A stretch of 64,000 bases of DNA, from NCBI RefSeq assembly GCF_964204645.1, contig NC_134027.1:5240485-5304484 (forward strand). The letters are read 5' to 3'. The position numbers and the translations under genes were made by a program. The notes beneath the pieces were generated by a model. The model saw nothing but the letters and a program-made list of their open reading frames with translations, searched no databases and was not told the origin of the DNA. Shown here piece by piece: positions 36,774 to 49,424 of the stretch. Origin of the DNA: Tubulanus polymorphus (Eukaryota > Animalia > Nemertea). The first letter of the stretch is position 1. The number at the start of each line of letters is the position of its first letter.

Positions 36774-39700
36774 ATGGCAGTGAGATGGAGCAGCGAAAAT
36801 GTAGTTGCAGAATACAAAGATTTGCAGGTAATTAAACGCATTTTACTGCAATAATTCTACATCTGGAAATGATTAAGTTTTATTTTGATAGTTAATAGAT
36901 ACTGATTCAATGATTAGTCATACTGTCACAGAGATCCCTTAAAAACATTTTATTTACCTCAATACAATATCAACTCAACTTTATTGTCATTGAACTTGAA
37001 TTAAATCTTTAAGTGTCACCCTATCAGTGAAACATTTAGTGCCAGGTACCGGTGGTGGGATTGATCTATCAACTATAGATATATATTAAACTTGTTTAAT
37101 TCTGACTGACAATTCATTTAGTTCCGAACGAAGCCGTAACCCTACTTTTATAGCAATAAGCAATGATCTCGGTTCATCTCGGTAAAATACGTCATCTCGG
37201 TAATAAGGATGACCGCTTTGAAATGATATAAAATGGAAATGCACCAGTGATAAAACATAATTCGTGATTCATAAAACATAAAACATAACCTCTAAGTTAT
37301 AATCTAATCCACAAATAATTAGTCTGAATACCAGTTGTTGTTACGGTTCCGTACAACGTCTGACGCTAAAGTATTATATAGAGGTTAACTCCTGTTAATT
37401 GCAATGCAACAACTGATTTTAGTGTCAAATCAAACCTTTGTACTAAAATAAATTAATTAGTTACCTTGTTGACTTTGAAAACGTGTTTTATAATAAAATT
37501 TTTGATGATTTAAATCGCGAATCGGAGAATTTATTGATTTGATTTGAATTGAATTGATTGCCACTATCGGGATTTCCAATACAGACTAAATTAATAAAAT
37601 GTGAAAATTCAATATGTCTCTCTAAAATTACTCTAAATGTTATTTTTTGTTGATAAAACACTTAAATTTTGGTCAATTTTAACCTTAAAATTTTGAAACA
37701 AGAATAACATCTGCATTGGTATCAATGTCAGTCCAAGTTAAGTTCGAATCCGTAATTTACACTCCCATCATGCACCACGAAAAGCCGCCATATTTGTTAT
37801 GGTGCCTCACTTCAACTAGTCAAAAGTTTTGAGCTACTACGATTGTCAAAAGCTACTTAGGATTACAAATTTATGCACAAACAATAGTTAACTTCCATCT
37901 GATTACAGAACAGTCAGTTTGAGGTAAGTTGATGGTGTTTTAATGGGTGAAATAGACGCTCAAAGCCTCATCCCTCAAAATGAGGGACGAAAATTAACCT
38001 TATATGAGCACTTTCGCCCTTGACGTTGTTTCAGGAACAACGGCTAGGTACTAGACTAATAAATAATATGTCCTACTTGATAATATACCCAACTTTACCA
38101 CAACCCTTAGCTAAAAGATGACTTAAACTGCTCTTGGCTTTTTTACAGGCCAATTGCATGGCAGTAGACTGTGTTGGCCACTATGGACTTCTTGGAGGGT
38201 AAGTTTTTGATGATGAGAATTCTGTATAATCCCACAGACCGACAGCAACACTTTGATTTGATTTGTCTCAGTTAACTATATCAAAACCTGCCTAAGCCTG
38301 ATGTCATTGACATTGGTGCCTCATTTGACATTTTTAGGAGAAGATTGTTGGCGTTGGTTGACCTTCACAAGCCATCCGATGCAGTCAAGAAATTTGCACG
38401 GAACAGCAAATGGGAGATCAGTGCTATGCGCTGGAATCCACATCAGTCGCATGGAAATCTTTTTGTAACCGCTGTATGTAATGAACATTATCAATGACGT
38501 TTTATGAATAGGGCTTTAGGTACCTAAGTAATATCCTGAATGTGTAAGTGGTTTTCTTTGATTTCTTGATTCCAGTCCAATCAAAGAGCAGATATATTTG
38601 CCTGGGCTGAAGGCCAGGCTGGTACAAAAGCTGGTTTAAAATCTCACACTAGAGTTATAAGGTTTGCATCATACTGCGATATATTGGCATTTATATTTGC
38701 CATAGGCCTGTATACCGGTATATGCTGTAATATATTATAGCATCTTTTATTTTTCAATTCTCCAGTGATTTGGATTGGTCACCGTTTGATCCAAATATTC
38801 TTGCCACATGTTCAATGGACACATTCACCTTTCTGTGGGATATCAGGTAACTATATCTTCGAAAACCATCCATCATGTGTGTATTTTGCCTGCATTGAAA
38901 ATGAATTGATGATTTCAATAAATTTATAGGGATGCTCGACGACCTCATGTATCATTACAAGCTGTAGGTACGTTTTAGAAATACGAAGTCTATAGACACC
39001 CAAACCTGTAGAGGCCATAATACAGTTTTCAGATAGGATATCAACCTATGTTGAGATATAATCTCTATTTTTCAGCTGGAGTCTCGCAGGTTAAATGGAA
39101 TAAAGTGAATACCAATCTGCTGGCTACAACACATGATGGTGACATCAGAATATGGGATCCTAGGGTATGTTAGCTCTTACACTTGTATAGTATACTTATT
39201 GTTGAACAAGTAAAACTTGTTGCGATTGAAAGTGTTTCATTGTTAAATTGTATATAATGTTTAGATGTCATACCAGCCTTTATTTATGGTGGTAAGTATT
39301 GATTAGAATTGGTGCTTCAAAGCGTTGCATGCTACAAAATTCAGATTTAGATGCACCATCCATTTCCGACCAAGCAGTTATCATCCTAGCAATGGGTCTA
39401 TAAAACTTGGAAGATTCATTTCATGATATGATTATCATAGATATACATCATAATGCGTTTTGAATGAATATTTTTTTTGGTGAAGGCTTTTGTGAAATAG
39501 AAAATGATTGATTGTAATTTATCAACATTGCTGAAAATAATCAGATTTTTGTATGATTTCTTAAACCTTAAATAAGTACTTTCAATCATTATTTTGTCAC
39601 TTCAAGGTCTGTTTGTAAATCTATGTTTTCCATTACATTTCCAGAAAGGTACTTCTCCAGTGCAATATATCGCAGCCCACTTGTCAAAAATACATGGCTT

Positions 39701-42700
39701 AGATTGGTCACCGGGGAATGAATTTACGTTAGCAACTTCTAGTCAAGATTGTACAGTCAAGGTGATTTTTATATTTTCTCTACTTGAGTCAAAGATTTCA
39801 CCCTTTAATTTGAATAGAATTTCATGTTTCTTAACATTTTACTATTGATAACACTGAATTATGTTATTTACTCCTAGTTTTGGGATGTTACAAGTCCTCG
39901 TAAGGCAACTAGTATGCTATCATCAAGCGCACCTGTATGGAGGGCTAGATTCACAGTATGTTCATTTGAAAGACTGCATTTCTGGAGATTCTGAATAAGA
40001 AGAATTTTAATCAGTCGAGTAATGTCAAACCGTTTATTCCAGCCATTCGGTCAGGGTATGGTGACTGTTGTCGTGCCACAACTTCGTCGCGGTGAAAACA
40101 GTTTACTGCTTTGGAACAAAAATGACCTACTTCAACCTGTTCATACATTTGTTGGCCATACAGACGTGGTTTTAGAATTCGAGTGGAGGAAACAAGTTGG
40201 AGGTGAGGCATTGAAAGTTCCTGGGTATATAATTTGCTTCATTTGATATACAATGTCATGTAACAAGCATTTCATGCTATTCATTTTGTATTCTAGTTGA
40301 TGGTGGTGATTATCAGCTTGTAACCTTCATGCTATTCATTTTGTATTCTAGTTGATGGTGGTGATTATCAGCTTGTAACGTGGTCGAAAGATCAAAGTCT
40401 ACGTATTTGGAGGATTGATCCACATCTGCAGAAAGTACGTTTGACATCACTTAATGATAGATTTGTGTTTCCCTATGTGAACGATTTTATACGACTCAAA
40501 CGGGTAATACTGGTATCTGTAATAACTCGCTTGAATTGTATTGCAGTTATGCGGTCCAGATTCAAACGATGAACTACTGTTGGATAATGTGGACGATATG
40601 GAAGAAATTGATGGAACAAACATTCAGTCAGTCATAGGAATAGCCGATGGCGAGAGATTGAGTCCAGATGATCTCAGTCCGTTACAATCAACTCCTCCAT
40701 CAAAACAGATTCCGTCGATGACTGAGCAAATTTCACCGCATCAACCAAAAACTTTACACCAAGAATTCTCCCTTGTTAACATAAACATTCCAAATGTCAC
40801 TGTTGATGAGGTTTGTAAAATATATCTGTTAAGAGAGCGTCCAAATTCGAGCAATACAAATATGGATCAAACATGTTTTCACATTACAGATGGATGCGTT
40901 TAAAAGGACATGTACTGTGTCAGTGGTTAGCAGTAAACATTTGGTGAAACTAATCATGTCGTTTCCCGTGACATATCCGAACAACGCTGCACCGACATTC
41001 CAGATTGCGCAGCCTACAACTATCGACCAAAATAATCAAACAAAACTGCTTAAGGTGCTTAAAGATACATCGCTTCAACACGTGAAGAGAAATCGATCGT
41101 GTTTGGAACCGTGTCTACGTCAGCTTGTCTCTTGTCTCGGGAATATTACGGTAGGTTTCTGGTTATATTTACATTCACAAATGATAAAACCTGATGGCAC
41201 CGATCGACTTCCAAGTTTTGTTTTTCACATATATGTCAGTTACCGAAAGAGTGCCAGTTTATCTTTTGAATTGTTTGAAGCAAAGAAACCTTCAGCTCAA
41301 CGGTATAAATTCTGTGAATCCAGCTTAATTTAAACACTGTTTTAGTCAATACTATAGCAGTTTCTTGATATGTACCAATTAGTGGGTTAAGAAGAGTTCC
41401 TCGGGACACATCTAAAGACCTTCCTATTCAGGCAGTACTGTTGTAAATACAATACCTGCGCTATATAAGTTAACATTTATAATTCATTTTCAAATCTGTC
41501 TTGTAGTTGGAAGAACGTGTAACGCCCGACTCGGATACACCGTATAACTTACAACAACCTGTTATTCAACAACCCACATTTCTACCTCTGTATTCTTACG
41601 GAAGTTTTCAAGATTCTTCAATTCCATTTCCTCGAACGTCTGGCGCTCGTTTTTGTGGGGCTGGTATGTTATCGTTTGCAGGCATTATCGATATCAAATA
41701 TAGATTTCGCTTTCATTTGAATCGTTCTTGCTTATCATTACTAGGTCATCTCGTAACGTTTACTAGAAGCTCTGATCTGAAGAAAAGTACAACAGAAATA
41801 ACACCTAAGTAAGCAGCGGTGTAATGAATATGTTTCTAAGTTCTAAATCACCGCATTCGTACTGGAATTTTTCAATTCATGGTGATTGGTATATTTCAGA
41901 TCATTGTCTGCTCTATCGGCTTACACACAAAGCCATTACAATGTGCGGACACCTCAACAGTCTCAACCATTCAATCTTATCTTCAATATGCCTCGCAGTC
42001 CTCCGAATAATGACGGCGTATCAATCAGTAATTTCTACAATTACAAAGGGGTAAGAGTTTATCAATATCTGATATTTTGAAGTGAACAACAATCGAGTTC
42101 CGAGATATTATTACGTTTGATGTAAATTCACCATTATTTTCAGAAACAAAGACTTCGTCCAAAAAAATCACTGAACAAGGAGTCGAGTGAACACAGTTCA
42201 CGTTCAAAGAAATCCTCTTCGTCTAAAATGTGTCGAGTGATGATTTACGACGCTAGTGTTTTATTGCCGATTCATAAATACCTAGCTGAAAATTATGTGT
42301 AAGATCGAATTCCACAACATCGAAAAAGTTGACTTGAAATTGAACCGTATTTCGCAGTTGCTATTTTTCTATTTCATCGCAGGCTGAATCCGAGTAACGT
42401 ACAAGAAACTTGTACTAAGAATGCCAGCGTAGCTGCATCTATTGGACGTAAGGACTTAGCTCAAATGTGGTCGTTGGCAGCTTTATCAGCTAGTCCAATG
42501 TTATCGTCAAGTCCCAATCCTGATGCAGGTCCGCCATGGGCTTATATGCCATTTGGAAGGAACCTTATCAAATCATGGTATGTAAATCAATCGTATAGTT
42601 AATGTAGCTATTTTATGATTGATGTCTTGATATCTGTTGATTATATATTCAAATAGGTTAGATCATTACAGTATAATGCATGATGTGCAGACATTAGCTA

Positions 42701-45700
42701 TGATCTGTTGTGTATTCGGAGCAAAGGACGGCAAACCGAAACAAATAAGCACTACTTCATCTCCTGATAGATCACAGTTTACGGACAGTGGAAGTGATTA
42801 TAGCACGGTGAGTCTTCGATCCGTTTCATTTTACACATAAAATGATAAGCTCAAATTGTCTACAATACGCAATCAAACCTGATGCTGAACTATTCCTAAT
42901 GTTTAATCTCGAGTCTGTTAATTACTGTATAACAATTCTCATAATGTGTGTGTGTCAGTCAGTCGCATCTGTTTGTGTTGTAGCATCATTCATCTAGTAG
43001 TAACATAGTCAAGGTGGGCGTAAAAAATACTTGCCGTGTTGCTTGTTGTTACTTCATTACGACTAAAACACCATTTTGTTTAGTTATTTGAATTGGTTTC
43101 AAGATCATTTCATCGATGACATTTCTATTTCCAGAAATTGGCGTCGATAACCTATAAACCAGAAAGTAGTTGAAAAATTACCCTCTTAATTAATGACATA
43201 ATTTGTGTTGACTACAATTTGAACGTTTTAATCAATTTTCAACTGTAAAACACACATTTTATCTGCTGCTTTGTGGTTTTAACAGGTTGGATTATTTATT
43301 TGTTTATAAATTGCTGTTGATATATCTTAGACTAACTGAAACTGATTCAATCAATTTGCAAGATATTGTGATGTTTGTTGTTCAGATCGTATCTGCTGAA
43401 GACGAGTTTGCCAGTTCTTTTTCGCACAGCTGGAGTTTTCGTAAGTCCTGTCACCGACAAGAGTGTCTCTCAAAATGATTGATTGCTGTGCTTAAATTCA
43501 GTGCTTCCAGTAATGCCTGCCCTGGAAGATACTCGACCAACCACCAATAACTAGAGAAAATTTAACCTTGAAAGCAAATTATCATCTATAATTGAAAATC
43601 ATTTTAACCGCAGAAGAAAGCAGAAATGAAAGTTGATGATATGGCTTTCAGTTTATCATTCCAATTTCAAACGATTTTAGCTTATTTTGTGGAAGTTGAA
43701 GCCATTATTCTTGCCTATAATTAAAAGTGATAGCAAAAAGTGGAGTCCAACGAGATCATTTTACTAGACACTACGTATATACAGATAAACCTGAATCATG
43801 ATCTATATATTATCCATACTTTCGATAAATTGCTGAAGATTGCTTTGCCATTATGAGTATACTACTGTCATAGAGTATTCTGTCAATTTGTCATAGAGCA
43901 TGGCATCATGTATTTTATCAGTTATACCGGGTATGTTGGCTGTGAGGTGTATGAAATATCACTGAAAACCCAACCATCATTGGAGCTCATACAGAATCCT
44001 TTGATATATTATTCAAAGATGAACGTCATAAACATTCCTCACTTGGCTCCATTACCAAGATCAATATGTGAACATTATCCTCTCTTCTTGATACCTTTAT
44101 GCATTTCTACAGAAACTGAAATTGAGTAAACAGTCCTATATTCCATGAGTAAGCGCTGCGTGTATTTATTTCAGGAAACATTGTCCTCCTCATAATTTTC
44201 ATCACCAGATTCATCATCCTTCTCTCCTTATTGTTTCCTCCCGTAGCCTGAAGAAGAAATACCAATACAGTTAAGCCCTGTCCTTGTCTCTCGAAGTTTA
44301 AGAAGACGGGGAAGTTTAATGCCCGTCATTGGCCCTATATTACCCACTCTTCGAGGTAAGATCACTACAAGTCCGTCCTGTATTAAGAAGTGGTTATTGT
44401 TTCATGGTTACCTCTTAGATTTATTGATAATTAAGTAACTTTAAACCCTTGAAATATGAAGAGTAAGGCATGTATAAACTTTTGTTTATGCTATTCTTTT
44501 AAATTTCATCAGGGTGAATTGTAATGACCACTTCTTCAGTAGCCTTGCTAAACTGAACGTGCTTCTTTGCTTTTTCTTTGCGCTTTCGCTGCAATGCTGC
44601 ATCCGTGCTTTGAAGCTAAGTTTATTGGTCATTTACTGAGAAAAATTTTGATTTAGTATCTTGCAAACTTCCCTCCGTATTTTATTTCATTAGATTGTCA
44701 TACTTGGGGTATTTACAAAATGTGGCTTCACTGATTACTTGGTTGGAGATGACTAGAGATTTAGTTAGTTCTTTTCACTCTTTGTTTCGTGGATGAGTGA
44801 GCAAGTTACAACTAATGCTACTTTCTTTTCAGAATAACCCTCACCCTTCAAAAATCACTAAGTTAGCAGCATAGTTTCAGTAAATACTAATGTTTAAATC
44901 TGTAATCTATCTAGAATGATTCACTGGATAAATCATACATAATCGTGTTATGAGATAATGTCTGCTTTGTTGATTTATCAAGGGTTTTTATCAGCTCATG
45001 CCCTGATACGTATTAAAACAACAAACACTCTATGTAATGTACATGTTAATGCTTGCGACATTCTCCTTAATTATTTATCATTTTACCTTTAACAGTATAG
45101 TCAATACCACACAATCCACCCTGGTGACACTGGACTACGAGAATTGTTACTGTGTAAGTGACCAACCCATTAGCAATATGCCAATACTGTATCTATGACC
45201 AACATTAGTTTATAACCTTTAACATCAAATTGGAGAAGAAAAGTTCAAAAATCTATATACATCTACTGGAATCTTTATCCCCGTTCTTTCTGGTGGTCAC
45301 AATGAAACACCCACCTTTTCTCAATGCACCATCAATGAATATCATGCACATCTTTTTCAAGTCGATACATTTTTGAACTTTTATCATACATATTGTACAT
45401 TTTGTAACATAGCATGCTCGGAGCATAGGAGGTTTAGCTCCTATAAACCTTTACTTACGGTGTGAAATTGTGTTCTGTAAAACCTACAGTTGCCATAATG
45501 TATCCAGTAAATCTAGTACGTCAGTGATGAGGGATGTTTCAATTATTATGCATGCACTGGTTTATGGTTACCATTTTGTAAATACCCAGTAGCGCACAAT
45601 GGCTGCATATGGGGGTAAGAATCAGTAATAAGTGAACAATCCCTGTGAATTATGAATTATAAACGTACTACCTGGTACTTAGATATGTCATTTTCTTTTT

Positions 45701-48700
45701 CCCACATGATTTTACCTACCGGTAACACTACATGAACATTATACTTAGGGATCATTCATTTATTATGTACGCATGAATTTTACTTTTTCAACCCCCCCCC
45801 TCCCCCTGTACGCAAAATCTGCCATTTTTTCATATACATTAAGCATTACAGTACGCAATTGCACTTACCCCTCCCCCTCCCCTAATGCGTACGTAATAAA
45901 TGAATGATCCCTTATCATCATCAATACGTTATCATGAAAATAATCTTAACATTAATATTTTGGTATAATATGTATATACGTATTAAGTCTGGTGGTAAAG
46001 GATTATGATTCATGATAGCTTTTACATTGTTCTTTGTGTGTTTGAATCGCCTAGTTTGAACTAGTCTAGATACATATTAAATAAGATTTTTATTTCTTTT
46101 CAGGTATCCTGCATATTACAGTTTCTTTTTGTTTTCTTTTTTGTGTACTTTACCCTATCCATTAAGTGAATGTTAGCCTCGGTGAACACAAACAGGAACC
46201 TCCTCCAATCAAACTCATCTAATCTATTTTTCAGCCCCCAGTAACACTAATATTTTTTGGCAAGTTCTGGTTGTTGGATGCAACGTCATGCAAAGTGCAT
46301 GAATATAAGCTAGATATCTGGAACTAGTTTGTGATATAAAGTTGCACCGGTAATATAAAATCGGCATGTGCTTTTCAGGACAATTTCGAATACAATCATG
46401 GAAGTGCTAGTTGGCTTAGTACTGATTCTATTCTGCTGAACAAAGGTAGCTTCAGTATTTTTCCTACGCATTGAAAAATCAAACATTTAAGTTGTAGTGT
46501 GTATGTGTGTGTGTTTGAAGTTATTCAGGCCTTCTCTGTCATTCAGTTTCTATCTGTCAGTCTGGAGACAGTTTCATAAAAACCCTACGGTACCAGTACT
46601 TATATTTTGTAAAAACAATGATGAAATACAACGGAAGCTCAATCACAATTCGATTTATACGATATTTTCTCCAGATTTTTACTGTTCTTGGCAGCTGCTT
46701 ACATTATATGAGGCTTCAATGTTTGATTTTGAGGACTTCAATGTTTGTTCTATTGTCACCTACCTACAAATGTATATTAGGTACAAGTCTTTACTGATGC
46801 AAGTTGCTGTTTTAGTGACTTCAATTAGGATCTCATTACGATAAAATCTCTAATCAGATTCAAAATGTCCCCGGAGCTCTGGATTTCAGCTATCATGGAT
46901 CAAACTAAATAAGCCTAATTTAAATGAAATGTATTCATTCCCTTTTATTTGGATTCCTATGATTAACTGCTTTTTCTTCATTTTATTTCTTGTATGTTTT
47001 AGAGTGATACCTGTTTATCAATATCATTTTCAATATTTTCCATCAAGTAGCCTTGAAGACTTTAAACATTGTAAAAAGCAGACATCGATGAATTTAGTTC
47101 TTTTCTTGACAATATGTTAATGAAAAAATATTATTTGACAAATTTCACTTTGCTAAGCTAATTGTTCGATATCTTTCTGTTGCTTAAATAAATCACATGT
47201 GTTTTAAAAAACAATGGATCCAAACTTCAGCTACTCAACTGGTTCAAATTCATCACCAAATCTTGGCATGTTATTTAATTTTGCGCTTCTGGGCTTTTAT
47301 GTTGTCATTTGCTTTTTACCTTCAATTATTTTGAAATTCATGTGCATATTTGACCATGTCTGATATATCTGGTTGGTTATAGATACATAAGTTGGCGTAC
47401 CGTTTTCCTGCTCAAGTTATCAGTGGAGACCCATTTGGTAAATGTTCACTAATCCAAGTTTATGTTTGGTTTATGTGATAATTTCTAACAAAATAGCAAA
47501 ACCAAACTCTAACTTTATTAACGATAAAAAAAAATTGCTTAATAAAGTCTTTGAATTTGCATGAATAATGGTCTGATTAAAGGTCTCTGGGTTGTAGTCT
47601 AACATTAATAACGTATGAGTTTGTTTACACCATGCACCATGAAACAAGCATCAGAGTTTGTTTTTAGTCGAATTGTCTTACAAATTCACATATTATGAAG
47701 TAACTTGTATTTCACAGTGGTGGAATCAAAATGCGTGATCACTTATATCAAAACTCGAAGTCTAATGGGGCACTTCATAACCACAGCATTATTTGCATTG
47801 GATTGCACTAAACTACACCCTTCGTTCAGCCAAGTCAGTCAAGTCTGAAACCTTTGAGTAACTTCTTCATCCTACATTTGTATAACCTGTCTCTGCATGT
47901 GAATAAAAGCTTTGTCCACCTTTTGACCCTTCTAACACTGGGTCCTAGGTTAACCAGCTCATGTAACAAAGATGTTTTGAGAATCAATATTGATTTGATT
48001 ACCGTGTTCCTCTGTTCAAATCAAAGTATTAAATTGTATCAGTTACATTAGTAAAATCATTTAGAAGTATATATTTTGTTTTTTGAATATGAACTGTCAA
48101 TTGCATTTCCTTATTTGTACAACTTGGTATTTATAGCTGGAATCAAGTTGAAACGTTCAAATAGCTGGTCAGATTCATTCGAAGATTACAAGTTTTCCGA
48201 AGTTAGAGATCCTGCTGATATTGAACGAGAAAAACATGAAGAGAACATGAAGTAAGTTTTTCTATTTTCATGTCCATTTCACACATAGCCTCAAATTGCA
48301 TATTTCTCCATACTGGGCTATATTATAGATTTCTAGACTCTTCGGTGATTTGTCAGTATGACCAGTTCAAGATTGCCTATGCACGCATTCTCTATCTGTG
48401 GGGCCTACATAACAAAGTCGCTGAAGTTTTGAAATATGTGTCTACACCCCCTCCTGGACATAAGGGGATTGGTAAGTCAAATTTCTATCAGCATTTCAAC
48501 GACACATTGGAAATGCTTATTCTCATACTTATATGTGAACACTATTTTTTCAGAGTTTGTGACTTTGTGTCAGATTTGCCACAAAGAATCCCGAGGAGTT
48601 CAGTGTGGACATTGTAAGAATTATGCTTTTCAATGTTCCATTTGTCATATTGCAATCAAAGGTACAAAAAATTGTCTAAATGATCAGCTCATCTATTTGT

Positions 48701-48892
48701 AAATCCATCTATACTGTGTGATTAAATCTATGAAGGGAAATATTTTTCTATTAAGGCGCTTCAAATTTTTGCTTGGCGTGCGGACATGGTGGGCATGCGG
48801 AACACATGAAAGACTGGTTTATAAAACATACAATATGTCCAACTGGTTGTGGCTGTAATTGTCTCAAAGATAATCCGATGGTTGGAATTTGA
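36774..48892 (+). CDS. WDR59: GATOR2 complex protein WDR59 (WD40 repeats, RWD domain, C-terminal zinc finger/RING), more than 20 exons
   Basis: N-terminus MAVRWSSENVVAEYKDLQ|ANCMAVDCVG; YIAAHLSKIHGLDW; PFGQGMVTVVVPQLRRGENSLLLW; IPFPRTSGARFCG; DVQTLAMICCVF; C-terminal CQICH..CGHC..FQCSICHIAIKGASNFCLACGHGGHAEHMKDWF..CPTGCGCNCL, stop at 48890-48892. These match WDR59/Sea3 orthologues as I know them. Confidence 0.96.
40271..40379 (+). repeat. Tandem duplication (55-bp period) spanning a WDR59 splice acceptor
   Basis: ttcatgctattcattttgtattctag|ttgatggtggtgattatcagcttgtaac is present at 40271-40324 and 40326-40379. Confidence 0.93.
42984..47437 (+). other. Cluster of candidate alternative WDR59 exons: one 30-nt phase 0/0 microexon and at least five phase 0->1 exons
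   Basis: AG/GT-bounded stop-free segments at 42984-43013, 43386-43440, 44247-44355, 45096-45153, 46379-46445 and 47383-47437, lying between a phase-0 donor (42807) and a phase-1 acceptor (48137). Confidence 0.6.
45748..45911. mobile_element. 164-bp MITE with TTA TSD (PIF/Harbinger-type by TSD), intronic in WDR59
   Basis: TIRs gggatcattcatttattatgtacgca / tgcgtacgtaataaatgaatgatccc; TTA at 45745-45747 and 45912-45914; internal C-tracts. Confidence 0.88.
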
Positions 48893-49292: not shown

Positions 49293-49424
49293 TTAATTGC
49301 CTATATTCATAGGGAGTTGTTAATTGCCTATTCAGAGGGAGGTGTTAATTGCCTATTTATAGGGACCGCAGCGAATTCAGAGGGAGGTGTTAATTGCCTA
49401 TTTATACTATAGGGACCGCAGCGA
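49293..49424. repeat. Complex short tandem repeat between the WDR59 3' end and SLC35C1
   Basis: ttaattgcctat occurs four times, interleaved with attca(g/t)agggag(g/t)tg three times and tatagggaccgcagcga twice. Confidence 0.8.

Follow-up and report, generated by a model that had tools for sequence, protein, structure and literature searches.

Two kinds of mutually exclusive exon cluster stand closest to the locus described here. In C. elegans, messenger RNA decay backs 14 of the 19 mutually exclusive clusters whose exon lengths are not multiples of three (non-3n), among them the non-homologous exons 4a/4b/4c of unc-32 (PMC4165533). The second kind relies on competing long-range RNA pairs between docking and selector sequences and includes Dscam exon 6, 14-3-3 zeta, Mhc, MRP1 and srp, the last with bidirectional pairing (PMC6071210); human ATE1 exons 7a/7b have been named with systems of this type (PMC7797038). 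Ivanov and Pervouchine regard decay as inadequate for clusters of more than three exons, whose lengths may sum back into frame (PMC6071210). Here we describe a cluster of five alternative exons, A1 to A5, in the gene for the GATOR2 protein WDR59 of the nemertean Tubulanus polymorphus, which by reading frame and annotation is a mutually exclusive cluster of a non-homologous, probably decay-backed type. The window is a 64,000-nucleotide stretch of contig NC_134027.1, and all coordinates are window positions on its forward strand.

A query with an exon of the RWD region gave a 100 percent match to the T. polymorphus GATOR2 complex protein WDR59-like. The WDR59 coding region (36774..48892) consists of 23 constitutive exons and one variable slot, and its 24-exon chain is identical letter for letter to RefSeq isoform X2 (XP_074645023.1, P0126). 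The slot lies between an upstream constitutive exon (42657..42807) with a phase-0 donor and a downstream constitutive exon (48137..48251) with a phase-1 acceptor, which encodes KRSNSWSDS. The intron separating them is 5329 nt long, against a median of 98 nt for the 22 introns between constitutive exons (16 of the 22 measure 70-120 nt), and joining the upstream exon straight to the downstream exon shifts the frame. Five segments in this intron are flanked by AG...GT, stop-free and 3n+1 in length, entering in phase 0 and leaving in phase 1: A1 (43386..43440, 55 nt), A2 (44247..44355, 109 nt, with an RRRGS motif), A3 (45096..45153, 58 nt, encoding YHTIH and conserved as an exon among protostomes), A4 (46379..46445, 67 nt) and A5 (47383..47437, 55 nt). 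A full-length protein results from five of the 32 possible inclusion combinations, namely the five single inclusions. In each of the 27 others a stop codon precedes the last junction by 351-650 nt. A first-pass annotation, made from the DNA letters, had given the same coordinates, lengths, peptides and phases and had held that any two exons together break the frame; all of this was borne out.

RefSeq lists eight isoforms of Tubulanus WDR59 (X1 to X8). Four are full length and carry a single cassette exon each: A4 in X1, A3 in X2, A1 in X3 and A5 in X4. At least two exons are thus used alone between the same flanking exons and in the same phases, with a productive mRNA from a single exon, as in a mutually exclusive cluster. 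The remaining four isoforms are truncated. The ends of X5, X6 and X7 are precisely those expected of the double inclusions A1+A2, A1+A3 and A3+A4, and X8 fits a longer form of A1 (43363..43440) with an acceptor 23 nt upstream and a stop at codon 3; position 43363 is the sole AG in the intron that yields the X8 end, and this form is a possible poison variant. The proposal of a mutually exclusive cassette holds, four of its exons being used singly; exclusivity itself appears leaky, with three of eight isoforms resembling double inclusions, and A2 does not appear alone. That the YHTIHP exon might be the sole one spliced in, the outcome named beforehand as fatal to the proposal, is not what the annotation shows.

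None of the sequencing runs was recorded as RNA; run X2 behaves as RNA by its splice joints. Its contigs contain at least 11 GT..AG joints at constitutive WDR59 introns, including 48251 to 48329 downstream of the cassette, and a GT..AG joint from 42807 to 43386, the first base of A1, at a depth of 60.9 beside 63.3 for the upstream contig. Runs X3 and X4 had no splice joints among those listed, and run X5 contained next to nothing. Three contig ends in run X2 (43414, 45124 and 46378/46407) lie 29 nt past the base preceding the A1, A3 and A4 acceptors. Of these, the end at 43414 matches the listed joint to A1, and the other two may reflect branching of a 31-mer graph where spliced and unspliced paths meet at the A3 and A4 acceptors. 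A further end at 48164 would fit an AG-ending donor (that of A2 or A4) spliced onto the downstream exon, and the contig itself does not contradict use of A2.

The intron contains 156 open AG..GT segments of 20-200 nt and 3n+1 length, among which the five exons between them hold ranks 1, 4, 12, 13 and 14 by splice-site score. A4 has the top score, and the A2 donor equals constitutive donors in strength. At three score thresholds the required frame class held 42, 16 and 13 segments, compared with 30-46, 7-23 and 4-14 in the other eight classes; these counts were reached by 1, 17 and 2 of 100 shuffles, so that the class beats shuffled sequence at two of the three thresholds. Enrichment of the frame class was rejected as proof of the exons, the class being no richer than the other eight, and the sequence pattern by itself is not clearly above chance. 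The exons are confirmed by evidence from outside these statistics, namely the RefSeq isoforms and the RNA-derived contigs. Two weaker candidates put forward in the first-pass annotation, 43135-43165 and 45593-45614, occur in none of the eight RefSeq isoforms and are unsupported. No pair among the five exons showed significant protein similarity (0 of 10 pairs, p 0.20-0.92; lengths 55-109 nt), the best DNA pair reached z 2.3, and no convincing direct repeats were found between cassette exons. The exons are unlike each other, as had been noted; the view that this is unusual for such clusters is qualified by C. elegans, where 7 of 29 clusters are non-homologous (PMC4165533). A search of Rfam gave no matches at E 0.1.

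The same slot was then compared across animals. A search for homologues of residues 700-900 gave 4 matches among 657 candidates. A swap between a 'YHT' exon and another exon was annotated in 14 of the 17 lophotrochozoan species seen (Tubulanus, Lineus, Owenia, Lingula, Liolophura, four Haliotis, Gigantopelta, two Patella, Mercenaria and Ruditapes); the other three (Solemya, Capitella and Physella) were represented by one sequence each. The swapped peptides, two or more per species, share a clean left border and have a variable junction residue on the right, as expected of a slot that runs from phase 0 to phase 1. Every swap pairs the YHT exon with an SS..W or GW exon. A3 matched six non-nemertean YHT exons at z 8.7. 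The SS..W exon is well kept among gastropods and bivalves, Lineus X4 resembled the SS..W set (p 0.02), and A1, of borderline similarity to that set, is likely to be its Tubulanus counterpart. The rejected segment 43135-43165 gave p 0.025 against the same set in one of 22 such tests, which was taken as chance. Lineus has four full-length alternatives at the slot, and its X2 exon carries RRRGS at the same offset as Tubulanus A2, 18 residues in, the Tubulanus and Lineus exons being 36 and 38 residues long. In Haliotis rubra, the peptide that closes X10 and X12 looks by eye like the YHT exon translated out of frame.

Outside the lophotrochozoans, the arthropods and deuterostomes compared have a single exon at the slot. 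Horseshoe crab, two locust species and Artemia have the YHT exon in every isoform compared, amphioxus has a single slot peptide, and the canonical peptide was found in 160 of 166 vertebrate sequences; the other six looked like read-through, a skip, model errors or a pattern miss, and none resembles a conserved swap. Four Homarus sequences and one millipede sequence were left out for want of an anchor, and of 12 further Schistocerca members those of two species were covered. These distributions suggest that the core pair (A1-type and A3-type) probably predates Nemertea, Annelida, Brachiopoda and Mollusca, which separated more than 500 million years ago, and that A2, A4 and A5 were probably added later. 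In arthropods and brachiopods the YHT exon holds both YHT and a terminal W, and for this reason an old duplication of the core pair with partition of the motifs is plausible; the core pairs of Owenia and Lingula also hint at it, short of significance.

Optional in-frame segments were also observed near the slot. In arthropods (P0152, P0269, P0282, P0273, P0181 and P0465) they lie in the loop just upstream, horseshoe crab, locust and cockroach having a GKWW-type segment and Artemia a related one. Amphioxus (P0258, P0254 and P0262) has an optional basic segment of 11 residues just upstream of the slot, and in molluscs (P0147, P0155, P0238 and P0169) SHPNL-type segments 3' of the slot combine freely with either core exon.

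An explanation that we consider unlikely is that the ancient A1/A3 pair alone is a selected switch, and that A2, A4 and A5 are young, functionless cryptic exons, tolerated because a disordered loop would accommodate any open 3n+1 peptide. It draws on the 156 segments that meet the frame rule by chance, on the lack of any counterpart of A4 and A5 in Lineus and six other lineages, and on the match of A2 to Lineus over five residues alone. Extra slot exons, moreover, vary by lineage (Lineus X1, and short exons in Haliotis and Gigantopelta), and the A4 donor and A5 are unspliced in run X2. Against it stand the splice sites of A4, the best of the 156, the constitutive-strength donor of A2, the identical RRRGS offset in the two nemerteans, and predicted RNA duplexes over both A5 splice sites.

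Several routes to exclusivity were considered. Steric hindrance was rejected: the inter-exon gaps are 806, 740, 1225 and 937 nt, with AG-free zones of 22-151 nt and branch points unmapped. U2/U12 incompatibility was likewise rejected, because each of the six donors begins with GT and has a U2-like hexamer when set beside the U12 donor consensus. The cluster fits the type backed by nonsense-mediated decay (NMD), in which the exons are non-3n and every skipping or multiple-inclusion form stops well upstream of the last junction. The argument of Ivanov and Pervouchine about large clusters (PMC6071210) does not apply to A1 to A5, as all four-exon sums still run into stops. The annotated isoforms suggest that splicing of the cassette is leaky, and since double inclusions are present in RefSeq, frameshift followed by NMD is the likely backstop. 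We consider it highly probable that NMD enforces exclusivity at the level of protein output. Read in the frame of a double inclusion, A2, A3 and A5 each reach a stop within two full codons (post hoc sum test, P 0.015).

The same features could make the cassette mainly a control of WDR59 dosage, in which transcripts are sent to decay by regulated double inclusion, by use of the acceptor upstream of A1 or by a retained intron, and peptide identity is minor; this we regard as improbable. It is consistent with the truncation of four of eight RefSeq isoforms, with the early stops of A2, A3 and A5, with an unspliced contig spanning 46378-48164, and with truncated forms in Lineus, Liolophura, Haliotis and Patella. 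The truncated RefSeq forms are, however, listed without abundance, and both core peptides are conserved residue by residue across distant molluscs, which dosage control would not need.

RNA pairing could bias the choice among exons. Eight duplex queries were compared with 60 block shuffles each, and four of them were matched by none: the query at the A1 donor, one at each splice site of A5 and one at the start of the downstream exon. For the A1 donor region (43423..43457) the predicted partner is the 3' half of A3 (45121-45156), at -38.2 kcal/mol (0 of 60). An element termed E4 (45176..45207), 23 nt past the A3 donor, would pair with the A5 acceptor (47366-47400) at -35.2 kcal/mol (0 of 60), and the best duplex of the intron scan joins 45178-45205 to the same acceptor (-32.5 kcal/mol, 0 of 60 shuffles). 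Element E3 (44698..44740) has two predicted partners, the A5 donor region (47413-47465) and 45567-45594; with the latter it forms a perfect inverted repeat of 16 bp, which would loop out A3; 5 of 400 shuffles reached a perfect repeat of this length. Finally, the start of the downstream exon (48137-48173) has a predicted partner in an intronic element upstream of A1 (43207..43241), at -27.6 kcal/mol (0 of 60), a pairing that in the whole-intron scan is unexceptional (-25.1 against a shuffle best of -24.1 +- 2.1 kcal/mol). Among the best 10 of 111 tiles, 6 are no more than 30 nt from a candidate splice site, compared with 18 of 111 overall (p 0.001). Net gains for five pairs were -16.9 to -25.3 kcal/mol, and none of 128 random pairs went below -15.3.

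In these models the two helices that E3 and E4 form with A5 are nested, and they would hide A5 and loop out A4. When E3 pairs with its other partner instead, A3 and E4 would both be looped out and A5 left accessible. The helix at the start of the downstream exon would be undone by any first splice and could in this way suppress skipping. A scheme in which the E3/A5-donor and E4/A5-acceptor duplexes hide the downstream exons and favour A1/A2 or A3, with the competing E3 stem freeing A5, is possible and is put forward tentatively. No single site paired with a selector beside each exon in the manner of Dscam; two partners were found for E3 and the downstream exon start alone, and the A2 and A4 splice sites had no outstanding partner. 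The suggested search for docking and selector pairing therefore yielded predicted duplexes over some splice sites and no site shared by all exons, and a docking mechanism of the Dscam type is not shown for this cluster.

The slot corresponds to residues 791-810, within a stretch of pLDDT below 50 (764-831) between the solenoid helices 750-760 and 835-846. It aligns to about residues 783-806 of human WDR59, with orthology over the whole length (1020.8 bits; 7UHY and related entries), and in chain 9dx0_D CSVFEAQ runs straight into SDPRERE, the matching stretch being absent. These results agree with the earlier placement of the slot in a low-complexity loop ahead of KRSNSWSDS and the zinc finger. 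Human residues 757-836 and 890-921 are reported to be disordered in CASTOR1-bound GATOR2 (preprint, PMC12136191), and the WDR59 zinc finger is required for full GATOR1 binding and mTORC1 activation (PMC12507694). The zinc finger lies downstream of the slot. An RRxS-type motif is present in A2 and in Lineus X2; RRxS is the substrate consensus of protein kinase A (PKA). The swapped peptides may act as linear motifs, with RRRGS a putative PKA site, and that they alter regulation or partner binding of the loop beside the KRSNSWS motif has, in our estimate, about even chances. WDR59 links GATOR2 to GATOR1 and promotes or inhibits TORC1 according to tissue in Drosophila (PMC9910487). The swap cannot be assumed to explain these tissue effects in the fly because the arthropods seen lack it.

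Taken together, we consider it fairly probable that five 3n+1 exons keep the frame when included singly, that other combinations are removed by decay, that predicted duplexes may bias the choice, and that the outcome is a swap of short motifs in a flexible GATOR2 loop. This explanation takes as established the phases, the frame logic, the single-exon isoforms of A1, A3, A4 and A5 and the junction to A1, and also, as far as annotations go, the two-way swap across Nemertea, Annelida, Brachiopoda and Mollusca. That A3 is constitutive and automatic models caught rare mis-splicing is extremely improbable and already largely refuted: A3 alone is strongly conserved and the sequence statistics alone are unremarkable, but the listed junction in run X2 leads to A1, not A3, at a depth near that of the upstream exons, and independent annotations of 14 species give the same swap.

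Several results weigh against the favoured explanation. The RefSeq isoforms are automatic models, neither curated nor at protein level, and come without abundances; A2 alone, which would give the longest form, is found in none of the eight, A2 being confined to a truncated double inclusion. Among the joints listed, from one sample, there is a single cassette junction and none from a cassette exon to the downstream exon. One contig of run X2 is unspliced from the A4 acceptor (46378) through A5 to 48164, so that the A4 donor and A5 were not seen spliced in that run. A1 is borderline against the SS..W set (p 0.052), A2 and Lineus X2 are not significantly similar overall (p 0.20), A4 and A5 match nothing in Lineus and six other lineages (p 0.61-0.74), and within species none of nine core pairs showed significant homology (best Lingula, p 0.055; Owenia, p 0.08). 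The duplex queries were picked post hoc, after the scan, and their arms were judged from the intron of one genome. Block shuffles formed duplexes as good in 8 of 60 cases each for the queries at the A3b donor, the A1 acceptor and the A2 donor, and in 30 of 60 for the one at the A4 acceptor; duplexes below -15 kcal/mol were not enriched (their count was reached by 15 of 60 shuffles); and in the same scan four of eight control tiles of real window sequence gave stronger duplexes, of -35 to -40 kcal/mol. The structure model came from a 20-sequence alignment, and its low pLDDT is weak evidence of disorder for that reason.

A more far-reaching form of the same explanation is distinctly unlikely. 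It would make the cassette a GATOR2 switch of Cambrian age, with YHT and SS..W exchanged in a loop that becomes disordered on binding of a nutrient sensor, extra unrelated nemertean exons that include one with a kinase motif, and competing helices that decide among the exons with the splice sites of the last exon as docking site. If true, isoform choice would set the strength or direction of the amino-acid signal from WDR59 to TORC1 in each tissue.

Other features were observed in and around the gene. A MITE-like repeat with 37-nt terminal inverted repeats (45738..45921, unstranded) lies between A3 and A4, outside the cassette proper; its summed contig depth was 28155 in run X2, and depth was very high in runs X2 to X4. 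At 46088-46112 a strong pyrimidine tract and AG are followed directly by GTATCCTG. The site resembles a recursive splice site or a U12-type donor, and no isoform gives evidence of its use. WDR59 exon 11 has a perfect 55-nt tandem duplication (40271-40379) spanning its acceptor and first 28 nt, of which the second copy (40352) is the one in the RefSeq protein; this is either a young duplication or an assembly artefact. A 25-nt tandem repeat of 2.8 copies lies 3' of WDR59 (49293-49365).

The first-pass annotation knew of no such cassette in WDR59, and no description was found in the literature on WDR59 splicing, mutually exclusive exons and lophotrochozoans, a search that left supplements (splicing tables) and subscription journals uncovered. 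The words 'isoform' and 'splic' do not occur in the main text of PMC9910487, and a review that expects more GATOR isoforms names none for WDR59 in the part available (PMC8534245). RefSeq already contains the isoforms, listed by X-number with neither name nor comment, and mutually exclusive clusters are a familiar class. The conservation of a splice switch in four phyla points to a functional element in a loop that cryo-EM leaves unresolved. The lophotrochozoans with the swap likely exchange short motifs in this flexible loop of a growth regulator, and YHT, SS..W and RRRGS are natural variants for swapping into human or fly WDR59. The exclusive cluster has, moreover, seemingly been enlarged by the addition of unrelated exons.

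The closest likeness is to the decay-backed clusters of C. elegans such as unc-32, where the exons are also non-3n, dissimilar and unequal in length, and where skipping or double inclusion likewise shifts the frame (PMC4165533). Those clusters have at most three non-homologous exons, compared with five in WDR59, and their dependence on decay was shown with smg-2 mutants, whereas for WDR59 we infer it. With docking and selector systems the WDR59 cluster shares a long intron, several exons and predicted competing long-range pairs: E3 with its two alternative partners is reminiscent of docking/selector competition, and the pairing site at the 3' end recalls the downstream-docking type (PMC6071210). 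Unlike those clusters, its exons are not look-alike duplicates, no single site serves the selector of every exon, and the predicted helices cover splice sites and exon sequence and not purely intronic sites. Within the WDR59/Sea3 family, nearly all vertebrate sequences have one canonical slot peptide, and arthropods and amphioxus have optional segments upstream of an invariant exon, in contrast to the exchange of exons within the slot itself in Tubulanus.

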